Source: Caulobacter sp.
GTDB lineage: Bacteria > Pseudomonadota > Alphaproteobacteria > Caulobacterales > Caulobacteraceae
Direction of reading: 5' to 3'
DNA: 64,000 nt
NCBI RefSeq assembly: GCF_035254145.1
Contig: NZ_DATFAV010000215.1
Coordinates: 1,229 to 65,228 of the forward strand
Position numbers and translations under genes: made by a program. The notes under the pieces were generated by a model, which did not search any database, was not told the origin of the DNA, and worked only from the letters and a program-made list of their open reading frames with translations. This document shows positions 13,244 through 30,204 of the stretch, one piece after another (the first letter of the stretch is position 1; each line of letters starts with the position of its first letter).

Positions 13244-13245
13244 CC

Positions 13246-14442
13246 ATGGCGCTGCGCGCGATCAGCCTTCGAGCCCGCCAGGCGCTGGTCCAGTTCCTGG
13301 AGAACGAGGCGGCCGGCGGCTACGTACTGATGGCCGCCGCGGCCCTGGCCCTGGTCGTGGCCAACTCGCCTCTGGCCCCGGGCTATTTCAAGGCGCTGGA
13401 GATCCATCTCGGCTTTGCGCTGGGGCCCGTCCATCTGGACGAGAGCGTCCTGCACTGGATCAACGACGGACTGATGGCCCTGTTCTTCTTGCTGGTGGGC
13501 CTGGAGATCAAGCGCGAGGTGCTGGACGGCCAGCTGTCGCGGCCCGCCGACGTGCTGCTGCCCGGCGCCGCGGCTCTTGGCGGGGTCGCGCTGCCGGCGC
13601 TGATCTATCTGACGTTCAACCTGCGCCACCCCGACAGCGTCGCCGGCTGGGCCATCCCCTCGGCCACGGACATCGCCTTCGCCCTGGGGGTTCTGGCCCT
13701 GATGGGCCCGCGGGTCCCGACCTCGCTCAAGATCTTCCTGACCGCCATCGCGATCATGGACGATCTGGCGGCGATCGTGATCATCGCCCTGTTCTACACC
13801 GAGCAGCTGCACCTGCTGGCCCTGGCCGGGGCCGGCGCGGTGCTGACGCTGCTGGTGGTTCTGAACCGCCTGCGGGTGCTGAGCCTGTGGCCCTATCTGC
13901 TGCTGGGCCTCGTCCTGTGGTTCCTGGTGTTGGAGTCGGGGATCCACGCCACCCTGGCCGGCGTCGCCCTGGCCCTGACCATCCCGCTACGCGCCGACGA
14001 CCGCTGCCCGCTGCATCGGCTGGAGCACGCCCTGCACAAGCCGGTCGCTTTCGGGGTGACGCCGATCTTCGGCTTCGCCAACGCCGGCCTGTCCTTCGCG
14101 GGCGTCGGCCTCGCCGCCCTGCTGGACCCCGTACCTCTGGGCGTGGCGCTCGGCCTCTTCCTCGGCAAGCAGCTGGGGGTCTTCGGCGTCGCCTTCGGCC
14201 TGATCCGCCTGGGCTGGGCGCGTCCGCCGGCCGGGGCCTCGCTGGCCCAGCTCTATGGCGTTGCGGTCCTGTGCGGCGTCGGTTTCACCATGAGTCTGTT
14301 CATCGGCGGCCTGGCGTTCGGCGAACCGAAGCTGATCGACGAGACCAAGATCGGCGTCCTGGCCGGCTCGCTGGCCTCGGCCCTTCTGGGCCTTGTGATC
14401 CTGCGCCTGGCCAAGCCCGCGTGCGCCCACAAGGACGCTTGA
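13246..14442 (+). CDS. nhaA: Na+/H+ antiporter NhaA
   Basis: [48 protein letters not shown]; ATG at 13246. Confidence 0.96.
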
Positions 14443-15979: not shown

Positions 15980-15980
15980 C

Positions 15981-17360
15981 TCAATTTCCTCCGTTTACGG
16001 ATTGATCGATGGTCGCCTCGGCCGGGCAAGCCGAACCGCCGGCCGCCAGGATCTCGCGGCAGGCGCGCAGGCGGTTCAGCGTCTGTTGGGTGGTGAGCGC
16101 GTCGATCTCGGACTTCTGGCGCGCCGTCGTGGAATTGGCGGCGGCGAAGGCGGCAGCCTGCTCGGCCGCGCCCGCCAGGCCGGCGGCGATCGTCTCTGCC
16201 CGCGCTTTCGCGGTCCAGCTGGCCTCGGAGGTCCGGCCGAACTTGTCGAGGCTCAGGTTCACGTCGCGGTCCCCGCCCTTCAGGTCGAGAAACTCGACGA
16301 CGCCCCATTGCGGCATGGGCAGGGTTTTGGCGGCCGTGGCCAGAACCTTCCCGCCACCGGCGCCGGACTTGGGCGCCATGAACCCGGCCTCGACAGCGAC
16401 ATAGACCGGACGCGGCAGGCAGACGCCGAGAACGCTCTTCTCGTCCTTCCCGGCCGGCGCGAGCTTCTGCCTGCAGATCTCGGCCTGGGCCGTCTCGGTC
16501 GAAGGGGGGGTCACGCCGGCAGGCGGCGTGACGGTCCACTCGACCTCGAACACCCGGGGCGGGCTATTCTCGGCCAGCCAAGGCAGGTCTTGCTTGTCCA
16601 GGTCCAGCGTCGCCTGGGCGGTGTATGTGCGCTTGCCGCTGGACCCGACAGGTCCCTCCTTCAGGTCGGCGAGCTTCAACCTCTTCGAGATGTCGGCGTG
16701 GAGGATTCCGGCGCGCAACGTGGACCGCTCGGTCAGCAGGCGATCGATCGCCTTGTTCTGAGCGCTGGCGGCGGCAGGATCAGCGGGAATCGCCTTATCC
16801 CGCCATTCCTTGAGTCGGGCGTCGATCTTCTCGATACGCCTCAGCGCGTCCATCGCCTCCGGCGAACAGGCGGGTAGCTTCTGGGCGGCGGGCTCGTCGC
16901 CCCGGCTTGGTGTGAACGCCGGCCCAACGCCCGCCGCGGCGCCGACGACCTGAGCGGCGAATTTGATCGCATCGCCGACGATCGCGCCCAGGCGGTTCTC
17001 GTTGCTGCTGCCCAGGGTGGCGATGGCGCCGGTGTCATGCAGGGTGAGCTTCAGCTGGCGCTTGATAATGCTGCTTTTCAGCTGTCTCGTGGTCAGCGGA
17101 AACTCCGCATTCGATCCGGCCGCCTCGCCCACCACGGCCATTTCGGCGTCCACGGAGGGATCATCGGCGCAAGACTTCAGCGTCAGCGAGATCTTCGCCG
17201 ACACGGCCGTCTCCGGCAGCTTATAGCGGATCAGTTCGAAATTGGGCGCATGTACGCAGGCGGCGGTCGGGCACGCCAGCATGAGCGTCATTGGCCAGGC
17301 CGCGCCGCGCGCCAGCGCGCGAAGACGGGAGCCTGACCCGCTCTTGGATCGATTGGGCAT
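15981..17360 (-). CDS. Hypothetical exported protein, probable lipoprotein
   Basis: ATG at 17360 after GGAGA; positively charged N-terminus, hydrophobic stretch and TAAC lipobox-like motif; stop 1 bp before the peptidase start. Confidence 0.6.
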   Translation of the reverse strand: MPNRSKSGSGSRLRALARGAAWPMTLMLACPTAACVHAPNFELIRYKLPETAVSAKISLTLKSCADDPSVDAEMAVVGEAAGSNAEFPLTTRQLKSSIIKRQLKLTLHDTGAIATLGSSNENRLGAIVGDAIKFAAQVVGAAAGVGPAFTPSRGDEPAAQKLPACSPEAMDALRRIEKIDARLKEWRDKAIPADPAAASAQNKAIDRLLTERSTLRAGILHADISKRLKLADLKEGPVGSSGKRTYTAQATLDLDKQDLPWLAENSPPRVFEVEWTVTPPAGVTPPSTETAQAEICRQKLAPAGKDEKSVLGVCLPRPVYVAVEAGFMAPKSGAGGGKVLATAAKTLPMPQWGVVEFLDLKGGDRDVNLSLDKFGRTSEASWTAKARAETIAAGLAGAAEQAAAFAAANSTTARQKSEIDALTTQQTLNRLRACREILAAGGSACPAEATIDQSVNGGN

Positions 17361-17404
17361 GATGATCTCCTGTTTGAAGGAAGTTCGGACTGAGGGGCGA
17401 CGCC

Positions 17405-17923
17405 TCACGCCGGGGCGTCGAGGCCAAAGACGCGGTCGGCGAGGGCCAGCAGGCCGGAGACCACGATGGCGGCCAGACCGACCAGTTCGCCCCAGGCCGT
17501 CATCCACGCCTCGGGCAGCACGCCCTTGATCGACAGGGCCCAGACGAGAAAGGCGATGGTCGCGGCGGTCGGCGGCCAGGGATGGGGCGTGAACGGCGCG
17601 GGCGGCTGACCGGTGGCGCGCTCGGCTTCTCGCTGTTTGGCGTAGGCCAGGGCCAGATACATGACCGGAGTCAGGACGGCGAAGCCGGCATAGAGCCACA
17701 GACCCAATCGTTCCGGCGGATGCGTCATGGTCGCGACCGCGGCGATCCCGGCCAGGAACAGGGTGATGGTCTCCGCCGGCAGATAGCGGGACAGGGCTTC
17801 GAACACGTCGCCCTTCTCGCCCGCGGGGGGCGGACCGGGCGGTTGACCACCGCCTGGGGCATGAGCCGGGCCGCGGATGGAGCGATTGTCGGCGTGGCGA
17901 CGGGCGAGACTGTTGAGGCTCAT
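17405..17923 (-). CDS. Small membrane protein (about 4 TM) with SRYLPAE motif
   Basis: ATG at 17923 after AGAGGA; Pro/Gly linker followed by hydrophobic helices. Confidence 0.65.
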   Translation of the reverse strand: MSLNSLARRHADNRSIRGPAHAPGGGQPPGPPPAGEKGDVFEALSRYLPAETITLFLAGIAAVATMTHPPERLGLWLYAGFAVLTPVMYLALAYAKQREAERATGQPPAPFTPHPWPPTAATIAFLVWALSIKGVLPEAWMTAWGELVGLAAIVVSGLLALADRVFGLDAPA

Positions 17924-18002
17924 CGTTCCTCTCCATGTCAGGTCGCAAGAGCGCGACGGTGAGCGGAATACGGTCACGCTAGGCCCGCGGCGGGGCGTCG
18001 CC

Positions 18003-18020
18003 GCGTGACGGCCGTCACGC
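18003..18020. promoter_or_regulatory. CRP-type operator (CGTGA-N6-TCACG) in the divergent promoter
   Basis: Perfect 18-bp palindrome GCGTGACGGCCGTCACGC with GTGA-N6-TCAC spacing. Confidence 0.6.
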
Positions 18021-18122
18021 GCTGAGAGAGAAGAGCCCACTCCGTGCACGATGACGTTGTGCCCGCGTGCGGTGTCTGCCAGTCTCCGTTCGGGGAACCT
18101 TGGTTTTTAGGCGAGGGGCGCC

Positions 18123-19868
18123 ATGGACGCGGATCAGCCCGCGGCGGCGCGCTATTGGGCGTTCGTCAGCTATAGTCACAGGGACGCGGCGCGCGGCCGG
18201 CGGCTGCATGGGCGCCTGGAGCGCTATGTCCTCCCGCGGCGCCTCGTCGGCCGGATCACGCCGCGCGGCCGCACGCCTCGCCGCCTGGCGCCGATCTTCC
18301 GCGATCGCGAGGAGTTTCCCGCCGCGCACGACCTCAGCACCGAGGTGCGCGCGGCGCTTTCGGTCTCCAACGCCCTCATCGTGATCTGCTCGCCCAACGC
18401 GGCCGCCTCGCCCTGGGTGGCGCGCGAGATCGAGCTGTTCCGCGCCCTGCACCCGGACCGGCCGATCCTGGCGGCCCTGATCGCGGGAGAACCGGACACG
18501 GCCTTCCCCGCTCCGTTGCGCGACCACGCCGAACCCCTGGCCGCCGACTTCCGCCCGGCCGGCGACGGCGAGCGGCTGGCCCTGCTGAAGCTGGTCGCGG
18601 GCATGGCCGGCGTCGGGCTGGACGAACTGATCCAACGCGATGCGCAACGTCGTCTGAGGTCCGTGACGGCCGTCACGGCGCTGTCCCTGTCGGCGGTGCT
18701 AGCCATGGGTCTGCTTACGGCCTTCGCCCTGAGCGCCCGGGACGAGGCCCAGCGACAGCGGGGCCTGGCCCTGGCGGCTCTGGACGAGGCGCGGACCCAG
18801 AGGACGCTGGCCCTGAACGCCCGCGACGAAGCGCAACGGCAAAGGGCCTCGGCCCTGCGGGCGCGCGACGAAGCCCGGCGTCAGCGCGCCGTCGCGCTCG
18901 ACGCCCGCGCCGAGGCCGAGGACCAACGACTGGAAGCCATGGCGATGGTGGAGTTCATGCTGACCGATCTGGGCGACAAGTTGAAAGGCAGCGAACGGCT
19001 GGCGGTGCGCAGCGCCGTCAACCAGCGCGCGCTCGACTACTACGCCGGTCAGCGCCGACTGCCCCCGGCCGCGACAGCCCAGCTCGCCCGGCTGCAAACC
19101 GCCCGGGGCGCGATCTTCGAAGAGAGCGGCGATCTGGATGCGGCGATGATGAAGTTCGCTCAGTCCTTCAGGACCACCACGCGCCTCAGCGAGGCGGCGC
19201 CGAAGAACGCGGCCTACGTCTTCAACCACGCCCAGAACGAGGCCTATGCGAGCAAGGTGGCGTTCATCCGCGCGGACTGGAAGACGGCCCAGGCCGGCTA
19301 CCGGCGCTACAACGCCCTGGCCGAACGCCTGATCGCGCTCCGGCCCGACAATCTCGATTACCGCCGGGAGATCGGCTACGCGCAGGGCAACCTTTGCTCG
19401 GTGGCCTTGCGGATGCGCGACACGCCCGCGGCGCTGGACTATTGCGGCCGGGCGCTGCGGACGATGCGCGACATCGAGGACCGCACGGTCGAGTTGCGGC
19501 GCACCGCCGCGTCCGACGTCGCCAATCGTCATGCCTGGATGGCCGACGTCCGCCAACGCCAGGGCGACCTGACCGGCGCCATGGCCGAGCGGGAGGCGCA
19601 GGAGAAGATCCTCGCCGCCCTCCTGGCCGAGCGCCCCAAGGACCTGGACACCCGCGCCGACTGGATCGCCCTACAGCAGGGCTTGGCCAGCCTCGCCTAC
19701 GCCGCCGGAGATCGCGCCGGCGCCCTCAAGCGCCTGAACGACGTGCGACCGACGGCCGTCACCCTCCTGGAGGACGACACCGACCGGCAGCGCGCCAAGA
19801 AGCTGCTGGCCCAGATCGACGCCAGACTCACCTACTTCAACCAACAAGCGAAGGAAGATCGGAAATGA
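18123..19868 (+). CDS. TIR domain - TM - coiled-coil stalk - TPR protein (cassette 1)
   Basis: AFVSYSHRD, IFRDREE, LIVICSPNAAASPWVAREIELF (TIR); one TM helix; TPR-like helical repeats. Confidence 0.85.
   Translation: MDADQPAAARYWAFVSYSHRDAARGRRLHGRLERYVLPRRLVGRITPRGRTPRRLAPIFRDREEFPAAHDLSTEVRAALSVSNALIVICSPNAAASPWVAREIELFRALHPDRPILAALIAGEPDTAFPAPLRDHAEPLAADFRPAGDGERLALLKLVAGMAGVGLDELIQRDAQRRLRSVTAVTALSLSAVLAMGLLTAFALSARDEAQRQRGLALAALDEARTQRTLALNARDEAQRQRASALRARDEARRQRAVALDARAEAEDQRLEAMAMVEFMLTDLGDKLKGSERLAVRSAVNQRALDYYAGQRRLPPAATAQLARLQTARGAIFEESGDLDAAMMKFAQSFRTTTRLSEAAPKNAAYVFNHAQNEAYASKVAFIRADWKTAQAGYRRYNALAERLIALRPDNLDYRREIGYAQGNLCSVALRMRDTPAALDYCGRALRTMRDIEDRTVELRRTAASDVANRHAWMADVRQRQGDLTGAMAEREAQEKILAALLAERPKDLDTRADWIALQQGLASLAYAAGDRAGALKRLNDVRPTAVTLLEDDTDRQRAKKLLAQIDARLTYFNQQAKEDRK
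18735..18938 (+). repeat. About 5 imperfect 42-bp (14-aa) tandem repeats, ARDEAxRQRxxALx
   Basis: ARDEAQRQRGLALA/ALDEARTQRTLALN/ARDEAQRQRASALR/ARDEARRQRAVALD/ARAEAEDQRLEA. Confidence 0.85.
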
Positions 19869-20497
19869 GCAATCCAACCCGCCTTCTCAGCCAAGAGAAT
19901 AAGTTCGGCAGGATTTCGGGCAACAGGCCCGTCGATTTTAACCCCAAGAAGGTCTTCCATGTCTTTCTGACCATGGATCTATCCAAACCGGGAGACTTAC
20001 AGTTCAACGTCCTGCAGCCGCAGGGGAGCCCTTTCAAATATAAAAGCGATAAAGAACTCGAAGCTTATGCTCTCGGCGCATACGAACATGGCAAATCCTC
20101 GCCGGTTCAATTTCTTCCGAATACGCAATACGATATCGTCGTCAGCGAACAATGCTGGATTATTCTACAACTTGATCCAAGTATTGAAAATTGGCAGTTC
20201 GCACTCGGTGAATTCGGCTGCACGACAAAGAGCGACACAAACGATCGCAACTGCTACCTGCGTCATGTCTATCCTGGACAACTGGGCAAACCAGGCGATC
20301 CCGTCGACAGGAACGGATGCCAGGTTCTCTACTTCGGCGTCTTTCGGCGCGGGGCGCGCGACTCCAACGACGCCAACGACCTGCCGAGCGAACTCTTCAA
20401 CTTCCACACCGAGTTCCTCCAAGCCGCCCTTGGCGCGCGCCTGCCGGTGATCTTCGACCCGGACATCAAGAACGACGCCGACAACAACTTTCCCTAG
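19865..20497 (+). CDS. Hypothetical protein with C-terminal DPDIKN motif (DP-EP/AidA-like beta-sandwich?)
   Basis: ATGA overlap with the TIR gene; 210 aa; AT-rich 5' two-thirds. Confidence 0.7.
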   Translation: MSNPTRLLSQENKFGRISGNRPVDFNPKKVFHVFLTMDLSKPGDLQFNVLQPQGSPFKYKSDKELEAYALGAYEHGKSSPVQFLPNTQYDIVVSEQCWIILQLDPSIENWQFALGEFGCTTKSDTNDRNCYLRHVYPGQLGKPGDPVDRNGCQVLYFGVFRRGARDSNDANDLPSELFNFHTEFLQAALGARLPVIFDPDIKNDADNNFP

Positions 20498-20508
20498 CCC
20501 GCATCGCC

Positions 20509-20532
20509 CCCGGAAGCCGCGAGGCTTCCGGG
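20509..20532. terminator. GC hairpin with GCGA tetraloop between the DP protein and cyclase-like genes
   Basis: CCCGGAAGCC-GCGA-GGCTTCCGGG followed by ACGTTTTG. Confidence 0.55.
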
Positions 20533-20572
20533 ACGTTTTGCTCCATGCGTTCCAGTTCCAGCGAGTACCGGC

Positions 20573-22105
20573 TTGTCCCAATCTTCTCCGCTCGTCGACA
20601 TCATGGCCCTCGCCCGGACGGGCGCGGTCGAGGAGGCCTGGCGGCTGTTTGGCGAATCCGGCCTGGCCGCCGCCCAGGATCCCGCCGCCCTCACGCTGAA
20701 AGGGCGGCTGCTGAAGGACCGCGCGCGGACGGCGCGAGGCCAGGCGCGTCGCGACCTGTTCGTCGAGGCCGCGGCCGCCTATCGCCAGGCGGCGCAACGG
20801 GGCCAGGGCGCCTACGCCTTGATCAACGCCGCCACCCTGTCCCTGCTGGCGGGGGAGATCGAGGCGGCGCGCGCCAACGCCCTGGCCGCCCTCGATGCGC
20901 CTGACAACGACACGCCCTACTATCAGGGCGCGACGCGGGCCGAGGCCCTGCTCGTCCTTGGACGGACGGACGAGGCGAAGGCCGCGCTGACCGAGGCGGT
21001 GTCGCGCGCGCCTCGCGCCTGGGAAGACCACGCCGTCACCCTGCGGCAGTTCCGCCTGATCCTGACCGAACAGGGCCAGGGCGACGACTGGCTCTCGGTG
21101 CTGACCCCGCCCCGCGCCTTGCACTTCACTGGCCACATGGCCCTGTCGGCCGACGAAGGCCTGGCCGGCCGTATCGCCGACGTGCTTGGCCAGGAGAAGG
21201 TGGCGTTCGGCTACGGCGCGATCGCCGCCGGCGCCGACATCCTGATCGCCGAGGCCCTGGTCGAGGCCGGCGCGGCGCTGCACGTGGTGTTGCCGACCAA
21301 CGCCGAAGTGTTCCGCGAGCGGTCCGTCCGTCCGTGGGGCGAGGCCTGGGTGGCGCGCTACGACCGGCTTCTGGTCCTGGCCGACAGCGTGCAGGCGACC
21401 ACCCCCGACCTGGCGCGGGTCTCGCGAGACGCGATCGCCCTGGCCGACGAGACCGCGATGGGGATGACGGTGCTCAAGGCCGCCAGCCTGGCCGGCGAAG
21501 CCCTGCAATTGGCCATGCTGGATCCCGAGCGCCCCGACGCCAGCGGATCGGCCGCCGCGCGCTGGCGAGGCGCCGGCCGCCGCCAGCAGCTGATCGAGGT
21601 TCGTCGCCTGCCGCCCGCCCAAGGCGCGGACGAGCCGACGCCTCCAGAACGGGCGCCGACCGCCCTGCTGGGCTGCGCGCTGGACCTGCCCCTGGACGCC
21701 GATCCGACAGAAGCCCTCGCCACGCTGTCGCGTGTCCTCGCCGCCGCGCCCGCCGGCGTCGCCGCGCCCGCCTGGACCGGCCGCCAATTGCTGCTCGCCT
21801 ACGCCACGCCCGGCCAGGCGGCCCAGGCGGCGGCCGCCTTGCGCGCGGCGCTGGGCCCACGGGCTCGGCTGGCGGGCGCCCATGGTCTGGCGCGGCTGGC
21901 GGCCAGCCCCGTCGGCCACGGGACCATCGCCATCGGTCGGGGGGCCGAGATCGTGACCGCCTATCTCGCGGTGACGCCGCCCGGCGCGGTCTATCTGGAC
22001 CTGCCGTTCGCCGCCGCCCTCTGCGTCGACGCCCCGCCGGACCTAGTCGGCAAGATCATGAACCTGACCGGCGACGCCCTGGGTCCCTACGCCCTTCGCC
22101 CCTAG
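20573..22105 (+). CDS. TPR (DUF4071/TPR-S-like) - SLOG - degenerate class III cyclase-like protein
   Basis: LALARTGA, LKGRLLKD, YALINAATL, FTGH, FGYGAIAAGADILIAE; collinear with 23939..25684 but both cyclase Asp motifs are missing; TTG start. Confidence 0.75.
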   Translation: MSQSSPLVDIMALARTGAVEEAWRLFGESGLAAAQDPAALTLKGRLLKDRARTARGQARRDLFVEAAAAYRQAAQRGQGAYALINAATLSLLAGEIEAARANALAALDAPDNDTPYYQGATRAEALLVLGRTDEAKAALTEAVSRAPRAWEDHAVTLRQFRLILTEQGQGDDWLSVLTPPRALHFTGHMALSADEGLAGRIADVLGQEKVAFGYGAIAAGADILIAEALVEAGAALHVVLPTNAEVFRERSVRPWGEAWVARYDRLLVLADSVQATTPDLARVSRDAIALADETAMGMTVLKAASLAGEALQLAMLDPERPDASGSAAARWRGAGRRQQLIEVRRLPPAQGADEPTPPERAPTALLGCALDLPLDADPTEALATLSRVLAAAPAGVAAPAWTGRQLLLAYATPGQAAQAAAALRAALGPRARLAGAHGLARLAASPVGHGTIAIGRGAEIVTAYLAVTPPGAVYLDLPFAAALCVDAPPDLVGKIMNLTGDALGPYALRP

Positions 22106-22111
22106 CGCCCC

Positions 22112-22780
22112 CTATTCGATCAGGCCTTCCAATCGCTTGGGCGCGACGATGATCAAGGCCTGGGCGGTGCGCCTGATCACCCCTCGCCGCTCCAGCGCGC
22201 TGACCGCGCGCGACACGGTCTCGCGCGTCGTCTGCAGGTCCAGCGCCAGGGCCGCCAGGACGGGCGGAGGGCTGATGGTCCAGTTGTGGGGTTCGGCGCG
22301 CCGCAGCAGCTCGGCATGGATCCGGCCCACGGCGCTCAGGGTGTTGCGGTCGATGATGCGCTCGGTCGACCCCCGCAGTCGGGCCAGCAACATCCGCGAC
22401 AGGGCCAGGCCCACGCAGCTGTGACGCTCCAGCAGGCGCAGGAAGTCCAGGGCCGCGAACACCGCCGCGCGGGCCGTCTCCAGCGCGGTCACCTCGGTCT
22501 CGCTGCGCGCGCCGGGCTGCACGGTGGCGCCGAACAGGTCTCCGGGCGCGTAGTCGTAAAGCAGGATCGCGTTTCCGGTCCGCCCCACGGCGGCGGCGCG
22601 CGCCCGGCCCAGGGTCAGCAGGTAGGTCTCGGCGCAACGGTCGCCCTGGCGGATGATCACCCCGCCCGGCTGATAGGCGCGCTCGACCGCCGCCGCGGCG
22701 ATGCCGCCGGCCACGTCCTCCGGACAGTGGAAGACCTCCCGCGCGAAGGCGGCCAATGCGGACTGATGAGCAGACGACAT
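22112..22780 (-). CDS. Crp/Fnr family regulator with atypical cNMP pocket
   Basis: IIRQGD, PGDLFGA, HTH TTRETVSRAVSALERRGVI; ATG at 22780. Confidence 0.88.
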   Translation of the reverse strand: MSSAHQSALAAFAREVFHCPEDVAGGIAAAAVERAYQPGGVIIRQGDRCAETYLLTLGRARAAAVGRTGNAILLYDYAPGDLFGATVQPGARSETEVTALETARAAVFAALDFLRLLERHSCVGLALSRMLLARLRGSTERIIDRNTLSAVGRIHAELLRRAEPHNWTISPPPVLAALALDLQTTRETVSRAVSALERRGVIRRTAQALIIVAPKRLEGLIE

Positions 22781-22864
22781 CCAACGCCCCCCGCGTCGAC
22801 CCTCGCCAGCATGGCACGAGCCGCCAAGCGCGGACAACCGGCTCGCGGACCCGTCGCCCCTGGC

Positions 22865-23233
22865 TTATTGCGGCCGATCCCGCAGGGCTTCGACAATCAC
22901 CCGGTTGGCGGTTTCACAGCGGCTCTCCCCGAACTGGCGCTCGATCCTCGGCAGGGCCTTGAAGCGGACCTCCAGCTCGGCGGCGGCCGCCTGGGCCCGC
23001 CCCGCGGCCTGGCGCGACTCGGCCAGGCGCTCGCGAGTCTGGGCCAGTTCGGCCAGAATACCGTCGCGGTCGGCGGAAAGGTCGGCCATCTCGCGCCTCA
23101 CCCGCGCCAGCCGCGCCCGCAGGCGAAGCAGCCGCGTCGCCAGCCACGCCACCACCGCCGGCAAACCGATCGACAGGATCTGGGCCGCGAGGATCACGGC
23201 GGGGGTGTCGGTCAGGCTCAGCGGGACGACCAT
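22865..23233 (-). CDS. Small TM + coiled-coil hypothetical protein (122 aa)
   Basis: ATG at 23233 after GAGAAAG; hydrophobic helix followed by heptad-like LARVRREMADL... Confidence 0.5.
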   Translation of the reverse strand: MVVPLSLTDTPAVILAAQILSIGLPAVVAWLATRLLRLRARLARVRREMADLSADRDGILAELAQTRERLAESRQAAGRAQAAAAELEVRFKALPRIERQFGESRCETANRVIVEALRDRPQ

Positions 23234-23461
23234 GTCTTTCTCTACATCCGGGATTAGCGGGCGACGCTGTGAAGACCCGAGCGGCCGCGCCGCCCAGGTC
23301 CTCCACGACGGACGTCCAGTCGTCCTGAAGACGCTGGAGTCCGTCGACTTGCCGCCCCAATTTCCCCACCGGGGCGACAACCTCTTGAAACAACACTTGC
23401 TGGCGCGAGCGCGCGGCGGCGAACGGGTCCGGCGCCGGGTCGCGCGCCGAACGGCAGCGGA

Positions 23462-23662
23462 TTACGCCCTCAAGCCGCTGGGCTGTCGGCCGTCGTCGAT
23501 CGTGGCCAGGGCGAAATCCAAGACCTCGCCGATCACCCCGGACAGACTGTCTTCGGCCACGCCCTGTTCGCGAGCCCAGATCTTAAGGGCGTGGCGAAGG
23601 AAGGTCGTGCCGGCCTCCGGCGCGCGCCCGGCTTCGGCCATGGCGAAATCGTTCACGGACAT
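23462..23662 (-). CDS. Small hypothetical protein (66 aa)
   Basis: ATG at 23662 after GCAGGAG; GC3-biased codons. Confidence 0.5.
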   Translation of the reverse strand: MSVNDFAMAEAGRAPEAGTTFLRHALKIWAREQGVAEDSLSGVIGEVLDFALATIDDGRQPSGLRA

Positions 23663-23836
23663 GGCGCGGCTCCTGCTCGGTTCGGGACGCGGGGTCCCTT
23701 GGGAGATTTGAAAAGTGGACCCGGCCGGCGGTGACCGGGCCCCAGTTCGGTTCACGCGGCCGGAAGCTCTGGGTCAGGAACTGGCTCATCGCGTCCGGTC
23801 GACGCCTGAACCATGTGTGGTGAAGCTGTTTTTGGA

Positions 23837-23852
23837 TGTGCCGATTTTCACA
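23837..23852. promoter_or_regulatory. CRP box TGTGC-N6-TCACA
   Basis: TGTGCCGATTTTCACA, 9 of 10 consensus positions, in an AT-rich intergenic region. Confidence 0.7.
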
Positions 23853-23938
23853 TCAAGAGAAATAACGGTTTTTCCTCAGTCGCCCTGAAGACGCCCTGAA
23901 GGCGCCCTGAGCCCCGCGAAGACGGCGGCGCGCTTCAG

Positions 23939-25684
23939 TCAGGCGCGCGAAAGAGAGAAGATCGGGGTCGCCGCAAAGCCCTTGCGCCCTTGGGTTCGCC
24001 CGACATAGCCGCACCGCACGCGGTCGCCGTGGAAGGTGGCCAGCGCGCCGGCCAAGGCCTCGCTGACATAGGCCGAGCCGGGCGCGACGTCCGGCTCGAT
24101 ACGCGCGGCGACGACGACATGGGCGCCGATCACGGCCGGCGCCTTGGTCAGCGGGTTGGTGCGCAGATGCACGGGTCCGTAGTGGCCGCCGATCCGCAGC
24201 CCCAGCCCCCGCGGCAGCCCAAGGCTTCGCATGTCCAGCGCCCGGTGCGCCTCCAGTAGGGCCAGGGCCGCCAGCGCCGCGTCGATCGGTTGGTCGAAGA
24301 CCAGGAAGAGGCCGTCGCCCCAGGTCTCGACATGGCGTGGCGGCGCCTCCAGCCCCTCGACGACCTCGGCGATACGGCCCATCACCCCCTCGATGAAGGC
24401 CGGGATCTGGTGATCTCGCAGAGCGCCGAAACCCTGGACGTCGGCGAACAGCATGGCCTTCATCGCCCGCGCGCCGACCTCGACCGGCGAGATAAGGCGG
24501 GGCGGACGCGGGGTCGGGCGGTCGATCGGGATCACCGTCGCCGGGCGATCCCCCCGCGCCCAGTAGGCCAGGTCGGATGAGACGCCGGCGGGGCCGGGCG
24601 CGTCCTGGCCGTCCCACACCGCCAGTTGCACCGCCTGGGTCGAAAGGGTCTGGGCCCGCAGCACCGCGCAGCCCATGGCGAACTGACTGGCGTAGGCGAA
24701 CACCTGCTCGTCGCCGAGATAGGCGTCCTGCGAGGCGTAGCGGATGGAGGTCGCCCGCGCGAGGCAGCGCTCGAAGCGGTCGACCCAATCGGGTCCGAAC
24801 GGCTCCACCGACACCTCGACGAAGGAGGCTCGACTGACCGGCAGGACGACGTGCAGCTCGGCGCCGGCGTCCAGCAGCGCCTCGGCGAAGACGATGTCGG
24901 CGCCCGCGGCCAAACCGCCATAGCCGAAGCCGACCCGCTGTGTCCGCAGCGCCTCGTCGATACGCGCCCGCAACGCCGTGTCGGCCACGTCCAGGATGTG
25001 GCCGGTGAAATGGGCGCAGACCGGCGGACGAAACGGTGCGAGCCACGCGGCGTCCAGGCCGGTCTCGTGGCACAGCATCTCCAGCTGGCGCAGGGTCGAG
25101 GCGTGGGCGGCGTAGGCGCGCGGCGCCAGGGTCAGGCCCTGCGCCAGGGTTTGGCGCGCGCCGTCCAGGTCGCCGATGAGGAAACGGGCCTCGGCGAGGC
25201 TGGCGGCCACATAATAGGCCGCCTCGCCTGTCAGGCCCGGCGGGGTGTCCATCGCCAGGACCGATCGGGCCTGGTCCGCCGCGCCCGCGCGGTCTCCCGC
25301 CACCAGGGTCATGGTCGCGGCGTTGATGGCGCCATAGGTCCCGCCCGACCGCTCGGACAACGCTTCGTATCGCCGGCGCGAGGCCTTGGCGAACGCGGCG
25401 CGGCGCGCCCCCCGGCTGGAGAGGGCGACGTCCTTCAGCAGCCGGGCGCCCAGCGCGACCGTGTCGGCGTCCGCGTCCTGGGCCAGGCCCAGACGGACAT
25501 ATTCGGACCGCGCGAAATCAAGGGCGCCCGCCCGCGCCAAGCACAGCACCGCCGCATAGGCGGCGGCGCGCGGAGCCTCGCCCCCCTCCAGCGCGGCGTG
25601 GGCGATGTCGTAGGCGGCGAGGATTTCGCCGCGCCGGATCAGCGCGGCGACCGCCTCACCGTCGAACGGCGGGTCTGCGCTCAG
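23939..25684 (-). CDS. TPR (DUF4071/TPR-S-like) - SLOG - class III nucleotide cyclase
   Basis: FGYGGLAAGADIVFAE (SLOG), MLFADVQGF, ETWGDG, RIGGHYGP, AARIEP; frame open upstream of GTG 25549 to CTG 25684. Confidence 0.85.
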   Translation of the reverse strand: MSADPPFDGEAVAALIRRGEILAAYDIAHAALEGGEAPRAAAYAAVLCLARAGALDFARSEYVRLGLAQDADADTVALGARLLKDVALSSRGARRAAFAKASRRRYEALSERSGGTYGAINAATMTLVAGDRAGAADQARSVLAMDTPPGLTGEAAYYVAASLAEARFLIGDLDGARQTLAQGLTLAPRAYAAHASTLRQLEMLCHETGLDAAWLAPFRPPVCAHFTGHILDVADTALRARIDEALRTQRVGFGYGGLAAGADIVFAEALLDAGAELHVVLPVSRASFVEVSVEPFGPDWVDRFERCLARATSIRYASQDAYLGDEQVFAYASQFAMGCAVLRAQTLSTQAVQLAVWDGQDAPGPAGVSSDLAYWARGDRPATVIPIDRPTPRPPRLISPVEVGARAMKAMLFADVQGFGALRDHQIPAFIEGVMGRIAEVVEGLEAPPRHVETWGDGLFLVFDQPIDAALAALALLEAHRALDMRSLGLPRGLGLRIGGHYGPVHLRTNPLTKAPAVIGAHVVVAARIEPDVAPGSAYVSEALAGALATFHGDRVRCGYVGRTQGRKGFAATPIFSLSRA

Positions 25685-26088
25685 GGAACCCGGCCCGCGC
25701 CGTTCTCGACGTCAGGATCGAGATCGATCTTCTGTTCGTGGCCGTCCAGCATGAACAGGCTGTAGGTGTAGACGCCCATCCGCGCGCATTCGTAGATCAC
25801 CTTGAAGCAGGTGCGCTCGGCGAACGTCGCGCGGCCAGGCCACTCGGTCACCCAGACATAGCTGGAGAAGTTGACGCCATAGTCGTCGGCGACCTTGATC
25901 GGCCGGCGCTGGAAGGTCCATCCGGCCTTGATCAGTTGGTCGCTGAGCACGAAGACCAACTCGCAGCGCTCGCTGAGATCCAGCTTGAGCCGCGTCGGCT
26001 TCGTCGGATCCGCGAAGTTCATGAAATTGAAGTTGTCATCCAGGCCGATGACCAGTTCGACGACTTTACGAGGTGTGGGTTCAGTCAT
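25681..26088 (-). CDS. Hypothetical protein with C-terminal DPDVEN motif (DP-EP/AidA-like?)
   Basis: 135 aa; ATGA overlap with the TIR gene; beta-strand pattern. Confidence 0.7.
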   Translation of the reverse strand: MTEPTPRKVVELVIGLDDNFNFMNFADPTKPTRLKLDLSERCELVFVLSDQLIKAGWTFQRRPIKVADDYGVNFSSYVWVTEWPGRATFAERTCFKVIYECARMGVYTYSLFMLDGHEQKIDLDPDVENGAGRVP

Positions 26089-28148
26089 TCGTGCGCCTCC
26101 CGAGCTTGAGCTAAAGCTTCACCTACGGTGGAGTCTCGCCAGAAGGCAAGGAACCCCGGGTGGGCGTATCCATGCTTGGCAAGGTCGCTGACGATGCTCG
26201 CGGCCTGGTCGGCCCGGCCATCCGCGAGATAGGCGCGGGCCAGGATGTCCAGGCTGGCGGGCGAGAGCGAGGCCCGACGCGCGCCCAGGACCTCGACGGC
26301 GGCGCCGCCACGTCCCGCCGCCCATTCCGCGAAACCATAGAGCGCGGCGCTATCGGCCTCCTTTCGCCAGTTCGTGACCTTCATGCGCGCGGCCAGCGCC
26401 TCTGACATCCGTTGAGCCTTAGCGGACTGTCCGCCGCGCCGCGCCAGGATGATCGAAAGCTGGTCCAGCCGGCCGTCCAGATCGGCGCGCCAGGCCTCGG
26501 CCTTGGGGCCGGATCGCAGTCGGGCCAGCATCGCGGCCGCGTCGGCGCGAGCGGCCTCGGCCTCCTTGAGCCGGCCCGACCACATCGCCAGCTCCAGGGT
26601 GTCCATTCGCCCGATCATCAGAAATTCGCGCCACCGAACATTGGTCGGGTCGAGCGCGGCCAGGTCTTGGAGCCGCGCGACGTTGCGCTCGGACCTGGCC
26701 CGCGCCTCCGCCCCTCGACCAAGATCAAGGTCCAGCCGGGCCAGCGCCAGTTCGGCCCCCACGCTCCGCACCCGCAGGCGCTTGTCGGCCGGATATTTCG
26801 CGATGGCTTGCGACAGGATGCGCACCGCGGCCTCGCGTTCGGCCAGCGCCTCGCGCGGACGTCCCAGCCGCAGCAGGCAGTCGGCGGCCCAGGCCCGCGA
26901 ATTGGCCGCGCCTTCCAGCAAGGTCCGATCCTGTGGGGCGCGCGCGCGTTCCGCCTCGAACACGGCCTGGCCGGCGCGGAACGCCTCCAACGCCTCGGTC
27001 GGCCGATCCTGCTCGAACAGCAAGGTGCCGAGATTGTTCTTGGCGTACGCGACCTCGACCCGCCACTCGGGACGGTTGGGATCGATCGCCACCAAGGTCT
27101 GGGCCAGGTCGCCGTAGCGCTTGAAGCCGCGCTCGGCGCCGGCGACATCCTCGCGCCGCCATTCCACATAGGCCTGCCAGAAGACGTTCTGGGCCTCGTC
27201 GAAGATGCGCTCGCCGTTGCGCGGATCGCGCTGGACCAGGGCGTGGGTCGTCGCCGCCGCCTGGCTGAAGGCGTCCTGGGCGCCGGCCAGGTCGCCGCGC
27301 TGCTCGCGGATGGTGCCCAGCAAAGTCTGAGCCTTGGCGCGCTGGCCGAGCGCCTTGTCGTCGAGGCGCTCGGTCGGCGCCTTGGCGTAGTAGGCCAGGA
27401 CCTTGGCGCTGACGCCGTCCAGCACATCCAGCCGCCCCACCGGCTCGAGCTGCTGGCGCAGGTCGCCCAGCATGAAGGCCACCAGCGCCTCGGTCTCGTC
27501 GCGCTGTTGCCGGGCGATCTGGCGGGACTTCAGCGTGGCAACCGTCATGGCGCCCATGCCGATCGCCAGGACAACAGCCGCGGCGGTGAACGCCGCCATC
27601 ACCTGCAGGCGTCGGCGCGCGTCGCGTTGGACCAGCTGATCCAGGCGCACGCCCAGCAGTTGCGCGGCGATTTTCAGGCGCGCCAGACGAGGGCCGTCGC
27701 CGTCCCGGCGCAGGTCCACGGCCAGGGGCTCGACGCCCTGCGGCAAAATAGCGCGGAGGGCGGGCGGCAGCACCGCGTCCAGCGCCGTTCCAGCCGGCAG
27801 TCCCGGCGCGATCACGCAGATGATCCGGCCAGCGTCCCGGGTCTTCAGGAAATAGTCGACCTCCTGATCCACCCAGCGCGAGGCGGCGGAAGCGGGCGAA
27901 CACAGCACGATCAGGGCGTCAGAGCGGTCCAGAGCGCTGCGGATCACCTCGTTCAGGTCCAGCGAGGCGCTCAGTTCGTCGCGATCGCGGAAGATCGGGC
28001 GCAGCGTCCGCCAGCCCCCATCGTTCTCGCCCTTGGCCAGTCCGCGCGGCGCCCGATAGGCCTCCAAGGCGCGATGCAGCCAAACAGCGGTTTTGAGATC
28101 GCGGTGACTATAGCTGATAAAGGCTCTGTACCGCTGTCGACTATCCAT
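26085..28148 (-). CDS. TIR domain - TM - TPR protein (cassette 2)
   Basis: AFISYSHRD, IFRDRDE, LIVLCSPASAASRWVDQEVDYF; TM helix; TPRs; ATG at 28148. Confidence 0.87.
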   Translation of the reverse strand: MDSRQRYRAFISYSHRDLKTAVWLHRALEAYRAPRGLAKGENDGGWRTLRPIFRDRDELSASLDLNEVIRSALDRSDALIVLCSPASAASRWVDQEVDYFLKTRDAGRIICVIAPGLPAGTALDAVLPPALRAILPQGVEPLAVDLRRDGDGPRLARLKIAAQLLGVRLDQLVQRDARRRLQVMAAFTAAAVVLAIGMGAMTVATLKSRQIARQQRDETEALVAFMLGDLRQQLEPVGRLDVLDGVSAKVLAYYAKAPTERLDDKALGQRAKAQTLLGTIREQRGDLAGAQDAFSQAAATTHALVQRDPRNGERIFDEAQNVFWQAYVEWRREDVAGAERGFKRYGDLAQTLVAIDPNRPEWRVEVAYAKNNLGTLLFEQDRPTEALEAFRAGQAVFEAERARAPQDRTLLEGAANSRAWAADCLLRLGRPREALAEREAAVRILSQAIAKYPADKRLRVRSVGAELALARLDLDLGRGAEARARSERNVARLQDLAALDPTNVRWREFLMIGRMDTLELAMWSGRLKEAEAARADAAAMLARLRSGPKAEAWRADLDGRLDQLSIILARRGGQSAKAQRMSEALAARMKVTNWRKEADSAALYGFAEWAAGRGGAAVEVLGARRASLSPASLDILARAYLADGRADQAASIVSDLAKHGYAHPGFLAFWRDSTVGEALAQAREAHE

Positions 28149-28182
28149 GCGTCGCCCCCGACCGACAGCAGGAGCGTACTCG

Positions 28183-28929
28183 ATGAAAACGTTTTCGCCA
28201 TCATCCTCGCGCGCTTCGTCCACTGGGGCGGACGGGCTTTCGCCGAACGACCACCGGGCCAACCGGATCTTCCGGCACATGTCGCCCGAGGAGATCAGCG
28301 CGCTGGGGCCGTCGATCGAGCACCTGACCTACGGCAAAGGCGAGATGATCCTTCAGCGTCGTGACGAGGAAGGCGGGATCTATCTGTTGCTGGAGGGCGT
28401 CCTGCTGGCCAATCAATACGCCCGCTCGGGCCGCGAGGTCGGCTATCGGCGCATCGCCGCCGGCAGCTATTTCGGCGAGATCTCGGCGATCGACGGCCTG
28501 CCCCGCTCGGTCAACGTCGTGGCGCTGGAGGATGCGCGCATCGCGCGCCTGCCTCAGTCGCTGGTCCGTCGCCTGTTCGAGGAATCGCCGCGCTTCATGA
28601 AGGCGCTGCTGGAGGACATGGCGGGCCTGGCCCGGGCCCTGACCGACCGCCTGTTCGAGCTGACCGCCGTGTCGGTGGCCTGCCGGGTCGACATCGAGTT
28701 GCTGCGGATGGCTGGCGTGGCGGGCGGCGACGGCCAGCGCGCGGTGATCAGCCCCTGCCCCACCCATGCCGAACTGGCCGCCCTGCTGGGCAGCCAGCGC
28801 GAGCCGGTGACGCGGGAGCTGAACCGCCTGGCCGGCCTGGGCATCGTGCGCCAGACCGGCCGCACCCTTCACGTCCTCGACCTCCCGGCCCTGGCCGGAG
28901 AGGTCGAGCGGATCGGCGGGGAGATCTAG
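28183..28929 (+). CDS. Crp/Fnr family regulator with canonical cNMP pocket
   Basis: YFGEISAIDGLPRS phosphate-binding cassette, HTH SQREPVTRELNRL; ATG at 28183 after CAGGAG. Confidence 0.9.
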   Translation: MKTFSPSSSRASSTGADGLSPNDHRANRIFRHMSPEEISALGPSIEHLTYGKGEMILQRRDEEGGIYLLLEGVLLANQYARSGREVGYRRIAAGSYFGEISAIDGLPRSVNVVALEDARIARLPQSLVRRLFEESPRFMKALLEDMAGLARALTDRLFELTAVSVACRVDIELLRMAGVAGGDGQRAVISPCPTHAELAALLGSQREPVTRELNRLAGLGIVRQTGRTLHVLDLPALAGEVERIGGEI

Positions 28930-29981
28930 ACCTTCGCGAGCGAGGCGCTGTCGATCACGAAGCGATACTTCACGTCGCTGCGCTGCATGCGGTCATAGGC
29001 TTCGTCGATCTGGGCGATGTCGATCATCTCGATGTCGGCGACGATCCCGTGCTCGGCGCAGAAGTCCAGCATCTCCTGGGTCTCGGCGATCCCGCCGATC
29101 AGCGAACCGGCGATCGCCTTGCGGCCGAAGATCAGCGTACCGACGGTCGGCGCCGGGTGCGGATGCTCGGGCACGCCGACCAGGCACAGAGTCCCGTCGC
29201 GCTTCAGCAGGGCGGTGAAGACGTCGAGGTTGTGGCTAGCCGCCACCGTGTTCAGGATGAAGTCGAAGCTGCCCGCGTGCTTGGCCATTTCCTCGGGATT
29301 ACGCGAGACGACCACCTCGTCGGCGCCCAGGTCGAGAGCGTCCTGGCGCTTGGCTTCGGAGGTGGTGAAGGCGACGGTATGGGCGCCCATGGCGTGGGCC
29401 AGCTTGACCCCCATGTGGCCGAGGCCCCCGATGCCGACGATCCCGACCTTCTTGCCCGGCCCCGTGTTCCAGTGGCGCAGCGGCGAATAGGTGGTGATCC
29501 CGGCGCAGAGCAGGGGCGCAACGGCGGCCAGTTGTTCCTCCGGATGGCGGATCTTCAGCACGAAGTTGTCGTTGACCACGATGCGCTGCGAATAGCCGCC
29601 TAGGGTGTAGCCCGGCGCGTCCTCGATCGGGGCGTTGTAGGTGCCGGTGAAGCCGTGTTCGCAATATTGCTCCAACCCCTCGTCGCAGGCGTGGCAATGC
29701 TTGCAGCTGCCGACCATGCAGCCGACGCCGACGACCTCGCCTTCCTTGAAGCGGCTGACCTGGCCGCCGACGGCCGAGACCCGGCCGACGATCTCGTGCC
29801 CCGGCACGCAGGGGAAGATCGTGCCTTCCCATTCCGACCGCACGGTGTGGAGGTCAGAGTGGCAGACGCCGCAATAGGCGATCTCGATCTGGACGTCGTG
29901 CGGTCCGACGGCGCGGCGCGTGATGTCCATGGCTTGCAGCGGCTTGTCGGCGGCGAAAGCGCCGTAGGCTTTGATGGCCAT
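28926..29981 (-). CDS. Zn-dependent NAD(P) alcohol/aldehyde dehydrogenase (CAD/YahK-like)
   Basis: CHSD, GHE, GCMVGSCKHCHAC, GIGGLG. Confidence 0.93.
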   Translation of the reverse strand: MAIKAYGAFAADKPLQAMDITRRAVGPHDVQIEIAYCGVCHSDLHTVRSEWEGTIFPCVPGHEIVGRVSAVGGQVSRFKEGEVVGVGCMVGSCKHCHACDEGLEQYCEHGFTGTYNAPIEDAPGYTLGGYSQRIVVNDNFVLKIRHPEEQLAAVAPLLCAGITTYSPLRHWNTGPGKKVGIVGIGGLGHMGVKLAHAMGAHTVAFTTSEAKRQDALDLGADEVVVSRNPEEMAKHAGSFDFILNTVAASHNLDVFTALLKRDGTLCLVGVPEHPHPAPTVGTLIFGRKAIAGSLIGGIAETQEMLDFCAEHGIVADIEMIDIAQIDEAYDRMQRSDVKYRFVIDSASLAKV

Positions 29982-30204
29982 GGTATTCTCCTAAAAAATC
30001 CGGGGACGCCGCGAAGGGCGGCCAGTCGGTGGTCTATCGGTTCCGCTACGGAATGATTAGGGCGGCAAATCCGCATGCGCCTGTGAGCCAAGCTCAGCAA
30101 TGCGCGCCGTCCCTTCGCGTTCGTGAAGCTCCGCCAACCTATCGCCCTCCGGTCATCTCCGTTAGATGCTGGAATCGACATGTGCTTTTGAGCAGGGCTC
30201 AGGA

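Follow-up and report, generated by a model that had tools for sequence, protein, structure and literature searches.

A 64,000-nucleotide stretch of Caulobacter sp. DNA (the window, by which we mean the whole of that stretch) carries at 17.9–29.0 kb two groups of genes, each of which includes a transcription factor of the Crp/Fnr family. We consider these to be two sister signalling cassettes, termed A and B, each provided with its own Crp protein and its own operator, and we put the probability of this reading at about 0.6. It is most likely that Crp2, the B-type regulator, reads a cyclic nucleotide made by its own cassette, and that Crp1, the A-type regulator, controls the expression of its own cassette and responds to some other input or to none. 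The elements on which the argument turns are the following, with coordinates in the window.

18004..18019 (no strand assigned): Box 1, upstream copy, an operator candidate; perfect palindrome CGTGACGGCCGTCACG in the divergent intergenic region, ~112 nt 5′ of the TIR-A start codon
18662..18677 (no strand assigned): Box 1, intragenic copy; the identical 16-mer within TIR-A, encoding V-T-A-V-T at the start of the transmembrane helix
18123..19868 (+): TIR-A; N-terminal TIR domain, one transmembrane helix and a coiled-coil/TPR region; Pfam TIR_2 and ThsB_TIR
19883..20497 (+): pNTSase1-A, a 'predicted novel nucleotide synthetase', PF20301 (Pfam 41.1 bits)
20573..22105 (+): A-type sensor protein, 510 aa; TPR-S (Pfam), a DprA/LOG-like Rossmann-type domain and a pseudo-cyclase
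22112..22780 (−): Crp1, Crp/Fnr-family regulator of 222 aa, the fourth gene of the A-type cassette; pocket FGA...ARSE, helix TRETVSR
23837..23852 (no strand assigned): Box 2, an operator candidate; TGTGCCGATTTTCACA on the + strand and TGTGAAAATCGGCACA on the − strand, family consensus aTGTGCAAATCCGCACAt; 86 nt past the cyclase-B stop codon
23939..25549 (−): B-type sensor protein, 536 aa; TPR-S, a Rossmann-type domain and a class III cyclase domain
25681..26088 (−): 135-aa protein, short and related to pNTSase1 in its C-terminal half; C-terminus DPDVENGAG
26085..28148 (−): TIR-B, a paralogue of TIR-A (35% identity); start placed at the Met giving 687 aa, as in its homologues
28183..28929 (+): Crp2, Crp/Fnr-family regulator of 248 aa; pocket FGE...RS, helix QREPVTR

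Gene content, paralogy, residue states, co-variation across loci, box conservation and codon constraint were read directly from this DNA (G+C 68–70%) and from its relatives, of which the close ones are Caulobacter species. For the A type, one genome per species was scanned with an alignment of the A-type sensor protein, and the best 80 of 242 relatives were kept. The B-type sample comprises C. vibrioides (L006, a locus of ~20 kb), strain RL271, the closest relative of the window and 29 metagenome loci. Statistics for the Crp1 family refer to 104 aligned homologues from 107 found, and those for the Crp2 family to the closest 119 aligned from 186 at E ≤ 1e-5. Sets A and B are homologous at all four positions, with identities of 35% between the TIR proteins, 40% over the first 350 residues of the sensors and 29% between Crp1 and Crp2. 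The small proteins are related by hhalign (135-aa protein against pNTSase1, probability 81%, E 1.2e-5), and the 135-aa protein is kept in B-type loci.

Two Crp proteins and two cyclase folds

Both regulators contain the two domains of the CRP/FNR family. Crp1 scores 41.4 bits for PF00027 (cNMP_binding, cut-off 27.5 bits) and 35.8 bits for PF13545 (HTH_Crp_2, cut-off 27 bits), and the corresponding scores of Crp2 are 60.6 and 43.3 bits. Neither reaches the cut-off of any named orthologue group in NCBIfam; against the FixK, FnrL and FtrB models Crp1 scores 17–25 bits, where the cut-offs are 211–300. The closest solved relatives of Crp2 are M. tuberculosis CRP, C. glutamicum GlxR and Clr. Each protein has the length of its homologues; a longer, 241-aa version of Crp1 gave no match in an exact-sequence look-up, and the homologues place the true start at 222 aa.

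The pocket of Crp2 reads YFGEISAIDGLPRSVNV, and the Gly, Glu, Arg and Ser of its phosphate-binding cassette, the same as those of CAP, are invariant in 119 of 119 homologues. The initial annotation had described a canonical FGE...R-S cassette at this position, and that description is fully borne out. The pocket of Crp1 reads LFGATVQPGARSETEV. On alignment with E. coli CRP, Glu72 is replaced by Ala, the loop is shorter and an Arg lies one position before Arg82, with Ser at the position of Arg82 and Glu at that of Ser83; the cassette defined by Gly71-Glu72 and Arg82-Ser/Thr83 is therefore absent from Crp1. The FGA sequence, shortened loop and displaced Arg noted previously are all seen in the window's protein, but the Arg is not characteristic of the family, being present, out of register, in only 9 of 104 sequences, which are its nearest relatives. 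The family as a whole mostly lacks Glu72 (Ala in 66/104), has no Arg-Ser and has an acidic consensus, FG[AG]...[EQH][ED]A[DE]V. The established role of Glu72, Arg82 and Ser83 in CAP (reviewed in PMC10187061) is the basis on which we infer the ligand state of Crp1, and acidic residues in place of the cyclic-phosphate clamp argue against the binding of a cyclic nucleotide. A division of ligands between the two Crp proteins had been proposed, and at the level of residues it is well supported, with the clamp in every aligned member of one family and absent across the other. The R-E-x-x-x-R motif of the recognition helix, which both proteins were said to keep, is present in all 104 Crp1-family and ~117 of 119 Crp2-family homologues. 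In the former the helix T[TA]RET[VA]SR is nearly invariant, whereas the pocket loop varies.

A parallel division is seen in the cyclase folds with which the sensor proteins end. Crp1 had been placed next to a pseudo-cyclase, and this is so: the A-type sensor gene and crp1 converge, with stop codons 6 bp apart (22105–22112). The C-terminal 150 residues of the A-type sensor align with the cyclase domain of the B-type protein, LGCALDLP corresponding to LFADVQGF and WTGRQLL to TWGDGLF, and both metal-binding Asp residues are missing in every A-type locus examined. An AlphaFold2 model made with 93 homologues (pLDDT 92) was matched by Foldseek to Ma1120 (E 5e-5, target TM-score 0.63), CyaC, Rv1264 and Rv1900c, with scores of ~0.6. 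On this model the C-terminus is a class III cyclase fold that lacks the catalytic metal site.

The B-type cyclase domain scores 23.7 bits with the Pfam Guanylate_cyc model (cut-off 21.9 bits). It keeps both metal Asp residues and the Arg, and the motifs LFADVQGF and TWGDGLF recur in every intact B-type locus. Compared with Ma1120, however, the specificity Lys is replaced by Glu, the specificity Asp by Ala, and the Asn by His; in view of these replacements we use 'intact' of the metal site only. The likeness to guanylate cyclases at the specificity pair is confined to its first position. With Glu and Ala as the specificity residues the product is probably not cyclic AMP, and is possibly cyclic GMP (cGMP) or a pyrimidine cyclic nucleotide.

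Both sensors also possess a middle domain with the motif HF[TA]GH...G[YF]GxLAAGADI...LH[VL]VLP, for which there is no Pfam match even at E up to 10. Modelled alone (pLDDT 95), it is matched by Foldseek to DprA and LOG with probabilities up to 0.99–1.0 and query TM-scores of 0.36–0.50, which identifies it, as modelled, as a Rossmann-type fold of nucleotide-binding or -processing proteins.

The states of pocket and cyclase vary together. A dead cyclase fold accompanies a non-canonical Crp pocket in 75 loci, and intact metal Asp residues accompany a canonical pocket in 18 (16 counted directly, together with L101 and L108, which were missed by the motif pattern and are intact on inspection). The exceptions are one artefact of adjacency and one truncated contig (L117). 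The previous suggestion that the split between the Crp proteins matches that between the cyclases thus extends from the window to ~95 loci. This matched division between live and dead is the strongest support for a scheme in which one Crp protein would be gated by a cyclic nucleotide and the other would not.

Crp1 had also been termed degenerate, and here the word is misleading. Because its type is widespread and conserved, with a nearly invariant helix, the sequences indicate that it is a form under purifying selection and no decayed copy. We find it scarcely credible that Crp1 and the pseudo-cyclase are functionless duplicates undergoing decay. Catalytic and pocket residues have certainly been lost, and both sensor genes are disrupted in RL271. 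Yet the length, the fold and many motifs of the Crp1 cassette are kept over ~75 species at 40–60% identity, the predicted structure is a confident one (pLDDT 92), and an invariant helix goes together with a conserved operator candidate. Decay is already contradicted by this conservation.

A candidate operator for each cassette

Boxes 1 and 2 had been noted previously, and both are present, at 18004–18019 and 23837–23852. Simple counting was abandoned as proof of their reality, as the window contains 8 CAP-like 16-mers (TGTGA-N6-TCACA-like) compared with 11.6 in shuffled sequences, i.e. there is no enrichment. We take the boxes to be real on the basis of their conservation across related loci, and not from their frequency in the window.

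When three Caulobacter lineages are aligned across the divergent region upstream of TIR-A, no block is better conserved than CGTGACGGCCGTCACG. When palindromic dyads were collected from 63 TIR-upstream regions, CGTG-N8-CACG, GTGA-N6-TCAC and TGAC-N4-GTCA occurred at 15, 14 and 12 loci, respectively; these are among the four commonest, and are the sole frequent ones absent from 87 control segments. Upstream copies of box 1 lie at −60 to −126 in at least 12 loci. The second copy, within the coding sequence, recurs in almost every A-type TIR gene between +526 and +568 nt, where it is held by the choice of codons: the first Val is GTG in 61/62 cases, the second Val is GTC in 51/52 and the Thr is ACG in 60/62, and the codon before these has C as its last base in 53/62. 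The background usage of these codons is 34–46%, giving P = 1e-14 to 1e-25 if shared ancestry is ignored. Allowing one mismatch or fewer, A cassettes hold 0.19 copies of box 1 per kb; the figure falls to 0.022 for the flanking DNA and to 0.003 for shuffled sequences, an enrichment in the cassettes of 9-fold and 60-fold, respectively. Where the TIR gene is missing or displaced, box 1 moves to the 5′ side of the first gene. The perfect box (CGTGAC-N4-GTCACG) was found in none of the B-type loci. Variation at position 5 of the recognition helix (V/A/G) showed no clean pattern against box variants when compared by eye across loci.

Further copies of box 1, perfect or with one mismatch, occur beyond the core cassette in L079 (Asticcacaulis; at 1177, 2938 and 10368), L072 (10604 and 10659) and L050 (10309), and in some loci, such as L050 and L072, the box stands upstream of crp1 itself. 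The density in the flanks is ~seven times that of shuffled sequence. The extra copies near a Crp1-type gene and the flank density hint at autoregulation and at further members of a regulon.

Could the palindrome act as RNA? CGTGAC-N4-GTCACG might form a hairpin in the 5′ leader or within the TIR mRNA, or be the site of another factor, with Crp1 regulating other targets or being inert. The upstream copies lie 60–126 nt 5′ of the start codon and could be transcribed, C6 → T and G11 → A often occur together, which would preserve pairing in RNA, and an intragenic operator is unusual. The arms are nevertheless conserved in sequence beyond what mere pairing would need, and the geometry is exactly the GTGA-N6-TCAC of CAP, with the conserved C6 and G11 of Clr. 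Crp1, with its nearly invariant helix, is moreover the only DNA-binding protein that travels with box 1, and in some loci the box precedes crp1 itself. We therefore regard an RNA element or a foreign site as very unlikely, and prefer box 1 as a candidate operator of Crp1.

Box 2, TGTG[CA]-N6-[GT]CACA, occurs once, 35–100 bp past the cyclase stop codon, in all 28 of the 28 B-type loci whose sequence reaches the region. None of these loci contains a second TGTG-N8-CACA, and the box forms a conserved island within a spacer that has diverged. Beyond it lie three further features.

23709..23744 (−): G+C-rich hairpin followed by a T run; 95–200 nt downstream of box 2 across loci (~100 nt in the window)
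23462..23662 (−): gene for a 66-aa protein, downstream of box 2 and the hairpin; in 27 B-type loci; no Pfam match
22865..23233 (−): gene for a 122-aa protein that combines a hydrophobic helix at the N-terminus with a coiled coil; in 14 B-type loci; weak DUF948 match

The consensus fold of the hairpin is accompanied by compensatory changes across 18 loci, and a conserved stretch, CCGGCCGCGTGAACCGACT, precedes the hairpin; stretch and hairpin lie together at 23709–23836 (− strand; also in L006, L008, L090 and L092–L120), between box 2 and the 66-aa gene. No Rfam family matched the hairpin region in a search of 17000–30000. The hairpin could mark the end of a short transcript or small RNA, serve as a leader or attenuator, or terminate the cyclase operon. 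A scan of 22000–24100 for sigma-70 promoters and terminators, which is not tuned to Caulobacter promoters, found none.

The two boxes share G2-T3-G4 and a spacing of G-T-G, 8 bases, C-A-C. In CAP, Arg180 contacts G2 and T3, and Glu181 and Arg185 contact the G4:C pair (PMC10187061), so that the G-T-G core of both boxes fits the Arg/Glu/Arg triad common to Crp1 and Crp2. They differ at half-site positions 1, 5 and 6, and these differences are kept within each type. The association of each box type with one cassette type favours one operator per regulator over a common set, as far as can be judged from the distribution of the sequences.

The proposal that both proteins bind the same boxes is not supported by this comparison: box 1 is found only with Crp1-type cassettes, and box 2 is present in all 28 Crp2-type loci, which points to separate candidate sites. 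Competition for, or joint occupation of, common GTGA-type boxes by Crp1 and Crp2, perhaps as heterodimers in which one partner is gated and the other always on, now seems unlikely. It would draw on the identical R-E-x-x-x-R triad, on the common core and spacing, and on the adjacency of the cassettes in the window genome and its closest relative, where transcription of the box-2 unit may continue into crp1. However, over ~105 loci each box type is strictly confined to one cassette type, and the conserved differences fall at three positions of the half-site. Most A-type cassettes are in loci or lineages (e.g. Sphingomonadales) where no B type is seen; conversely, the C. vibrioides locus as retrieved (L006) has box 2 and no Crp1-type cassette. 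The proteins are only 29% identical, the dimer helix included.

In the window crp1 begins 84 bp past the stop codon that ends the 122-aa gene in the B unit, on the same strand. The spacer (22781–22864) contains no terminator-like hairpin or T run, either as read or as folded (fold z-score −0.25), and the same layout recurs in the closest relative (L010). We speculate that in this lineage the two cassettes might be coupled by transcripts that begin at box 2 and run on into crp1.

A proposed relay from TIR protein to transcription factor

On the basis of these data we propose a mechanism in which the binding events, ligands, enzyme activities and signs of regulation are our own suggestions. In the B-type cassette (23462..28929) a membrane TIR enzyme would make an NAD-derived signal, by analogy with ThsB of Thoeris. 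The TPR-S/Rossmann part of the 536-aa protein would read this signal and turn on its cyclase domain, and the resulting cyclic nucleotide, probably not cyclic AMP, would fill the canonical pocket of Crp2. Crp2 would then bind TGTGC-N6-GCACA beyond the cyclase gene, and control a short transcript and the two small genes. In the A-type cassette (18004..22780) the cyclase domain would be catalytically dead, and Crp1, having no clamp, would read no cyclic nucleotide. It would bind CGTGAC-N4-GTCACG at the TIR-A promoter and at the second site within the TIR-A coding sequence, and so set the expression of its own cassette, whether as a constitutive, ligand-free repressor or in answer to some other ligand made by the cassette or to a protein partner. 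The broader view is of a second-messenger relay that is initiated by TIR and ends in transcription and not in killing. The full chain would run in the Caulobacter B type, C. crescentus included, and the far more widespread A type would be a version with the cyclase step disabled, the CRP re-tuned to an input other than a cyclic nucleotide, and an operator embedded at synonymous sites of the TIR gene. This we advance only tentatively, as a possible account that falls short of being probable.

The TIR proteins carry an S-x-W-x3-E motif that is invariant in 68 of 68 sequences, and its Glu may be called catalytic-type by analogy only. TIR-A has a single hydrophobic helix, at residues 183–203. After this helix (18730–18930, residues ~203–270) comes an Arg/Glu/Gln-rich repeat, RDEAQRQR..., of four to five units; it is missing from TIR-B and shows as a 60-residue gap in the pairwise alignment. 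Burroughs and Aravind reportedly proposed in 2020 that the TPR-S type is a sensor of NAD-derived signals.

How widespread are the cassettes? The A-type arrangement of TIR, pNTSase1, TPR-S and convergent Crp genes recurs in three genomes with unrelated flanks. A Crp1-family gene lies directly after the sensor gene, and nearly always convergent with it, in ~75 of the 80 species-representative loci, which are spread over Caulobacterales, Sphingomonadales and Rhizomicrobium; the genera are Caulobacter, Brevundimonas, Phenylobacterium, Asticcacaulis, Rhizomicrobium, Sphingomonas, Allosphingosinicella, Croceicoccus, Sphingorhabdus and others. In many species the 3′ ends of the sensor and Crp1-type genes overlap by 4–48 bp, and the persistence of this tail-to-tail layout implies overlapping transcripts.

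The B-type order of Crp2, TIR, 135-aa protein and cyclase is shared by C. vibrioides, RL271, the closest relative of the window and the 29 metagenome loci. In C. vibrioides the cassette adjoins hemN and cco-fix genes, and the closest relative has both cassettes in the same layout as the window. The start codons of the divergent crp2 and TIR-B genes are 34 bp apart (28149–28182), and 36 bp apart in C. vibrioides. The conserved spacer is free of palindromes, and the promoters of both genes must therefore lie within the adjacent coding sequences. In RL271 both sensor genes are damaged. The A-type gene (L002 10651–12196) is split into a 386-aa piece and a fragment, where a metagenome relative (L003) has an intact gene of 514 aa, and the B-type cyclase region (L008 5369–7495) has no called gene, the frame breaking before the last cyclase motif. 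The strain's Crp, TIR and small genes are intact.

A number of observations weigh against the reading of two self-contained cassettes. The B-type loci all come from one genus, Caulobacter, so that common descent could account for much of the B-type linkage and for much of the constancy of box 2; moreover the scan was ranked with an A-type query, and B-like cassettes in other taxa may have been missed. The activity of the B-type cyclase is not assured from its residues, as the Asn and the Lys/Asp pair are gone and the Pfam threshold is narrowly passed. The peptide specified by the intragenic box 1, V-[TM]-x-[VI]-T, is itself conserved. Of the A-type loci, 22 of 77 have no box 1 at one mismatch or fewer, though many of these loci are truncated. 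With a common GTG...CAC core there might be cross-binding in a genome that has both cassettes. Lastly, the role of Crp2 might be a general one, with numerous targets elsewhere.

This last point leads to an explanation in which Crp2 serves as a genus-wide cyclic-nucleotide regulator that stands beside the B cassette by inherited synteny, box 2 being one of many sites or that of another factor. It is core-like in Caulobacter, with 72–93% identity across species, its linkage has been seen in that single genus, and hundreds of sites are bound by some members of the CRP family, CgrA and Clr among them (PMC10187061). We judge it to be unlikely for three reasons. The pairing of Crp2 with TIR-B persists in RL271, where the flanks differ; a canonical pocket and an intact cyclase are found together in all 18 loci holding both; and box 2 is the sole palindrome of its kind in each locus, and lies inside the cassette. 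On the reading that we prefer, each Crp protein would be dedicated to its own cassette.

Some observations concern the surroundings. Three genes diverge from TIR-A (14927–17923, − strand). They encode a 172-aa multi-pass membrane protein, a lipoprotein-like protein of 449 aa whose signal peptide ends in LMLAC, and a protein carrying HEIGHALGLEHEH, a motif of the astacin/metzincin type. The first two were rejected as members of the cassette, being near it in only 3 and 0 other loci, respectively. The strong AT skew of −0.28 at 12000–14400 falls on genes whose products are multi-pass membrane proteins, one of them transporter-like (429 aa) and one antiporter-like, and looks like an ordinary effect of hydrophobic codon content. 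The sequence of the window occurs only in DNA runs of soil metagenomes and in one metatranscriptome, with 7% of the sampled words. A literature search with guessed C. crescentus locus tags (CC_1412–1415) gave no relevant papers.

Comparison with known systems

The ligand-divergent members of the CRP/FNR family include FNR, CooA, FixK, NtcA, PrfA and SdrP. Crp1 resembles these in that fold and DNA-binding head are kept while the cyclic-nucleotide clamp has been replaced; unlike FNR, its head is of the CAP type (R-E-R) and not the E-SR of FNR. The cyclic-nucleotide regulators CAP, M. tuberculosis Rv3676, GlxR, Clr and CgrA share with Crp1 and Crp2 a β-roll joined to a winged helix-turn-helix, the R-E-x-x-x-R motif and a G-T-G...C-A-C palindrome. 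Crp2 also has the Gly-Glu and Arg-Ser of CAP and Clr, whereas the Crp1 family lacks the Glu and Arg-Ser and is acidic there. The sites of Clr have a conserved C6 and G11 with a 4-base spacer (PMC10187061), as does box 1. Crp1 and Crp2 differ from such regulators in being tied to a TIR cassette and not to carbon metabolism, and in that one of the operator candidates is intragenic.

The gcyB-gcyC-cgrA operon of R. centenum, which encodes a cGMP-specific CRP together with its cyclases and has a CAP-type site at the operon promoter (PMC10187061), is the nearest functional precedent for the B cassette. In each, an alphaproteobacterial CRP homologue lies beside a cyclase with a palindromic CAP-like site in the locus, and the B-type cyclase has, as guanylate cyclases do, a Glu at the position of the adenylate-cyclase Lys. 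The likeness is one by description, however, and no TIR, pNTSase1 or TPR-S partners are described for the operon (PMC10187061). The R. centenum site is also at the operon promoter, whereas box 2 comes after the cyclase gene.

In Pycsar systems a cyclic CMP or cyclic UMP cyclase is combined with a binding-domain effector. The cassettes similarly have a class III-type cyclase beside a protein with a cyclic-nucleotide-binding domain, and the sensor domains of both Crp proteins give weak matches to the PycTIR effector models of PADLOC. But that protein is here a DNA-binding regulator and not a toxic effector, and the PycC models matched neither cyclase protein.

The Pfam names pNTSase1 and TPR-S come from Burroughs and Aravind 2020, J Bacteriol (PMC7685563). 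A literature search on the two names, beyond the reach of which this source paper lay, found nothing. The association of TIR, pNTSase1 and TPR-S was evidently noticed already by the authors of the families, who may mention a Crp-type partner too. What seem to be new are the matching of live and dead cyclases with Crp pockets, the two cassette-specific operator candidates, the codon-held candidate operator in the TIR gene and the occurrence of the live version in C. vibrioides. Two genes that carried plain 'Crp/Fnr family' annotations thus become parts of a testable design, in which a putative TIR enzyme, a sensor whose cyclase is live or dead and a matched regulator are joined with mapped operator candidates, and each step could be tested quickly with the live-cyclase version, since Caulobacter vibrioides is a genetic model. 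The matched loss of catalysis and clamp in ~75 species, with the DNA-reading head retained, would be a natural experiment in the rewiring of a relay. An operator held within a gene by codon choice across alphaproteobacterial orders would be an unusual overlap of coding and regulatory information.

For the upstream half of the cassettes the nearest precedent is Thoeris. In type I Thoeris, which pairs a ThsB TIR protein with ThsA, a cyclic ADP-ribose (cADPR) isomer is read by the SLOG domain of ThsA, a member of the DprA/LOG superfamily. Type VIII comprises ThsB and ThsI, the latter with TPR and a CMP-hydrolase domain, and responds to cADPR; the TPR type of its effector had been predicted in TIR signalling (preprint 10.64898/2025.12.03.692087). 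The cassettes have in common with Thoeris a TIR protein, with a ThsB_TIR match and the invariant catalytic-type Glu, and a partner with an Aravind-type TPR sensor, the kind carried by the type VIII effector, together with a DprA/LOG-fold domain. They depart from it in several ways. The TIR protein is membrane-anchored with a large region that looks extra-cytoplasmic, the partner ends in a cyclase or pseudo-cyclase and not in a killing enzyme, and a pNTSase1 gene and a transcription factor have been added. No system model of PADLOC was matched, the TIR proteins giving only weak ThsB-like matches (15–23 bits) and the other Thoeris-type parts none. Because of this, and because the fused output is not a killing enzyme, we do not class the cassettes as Thoeris. 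If they should prove to be related immune systems, they would add a transcriptional output to a class that is known so far for effectors that kill.

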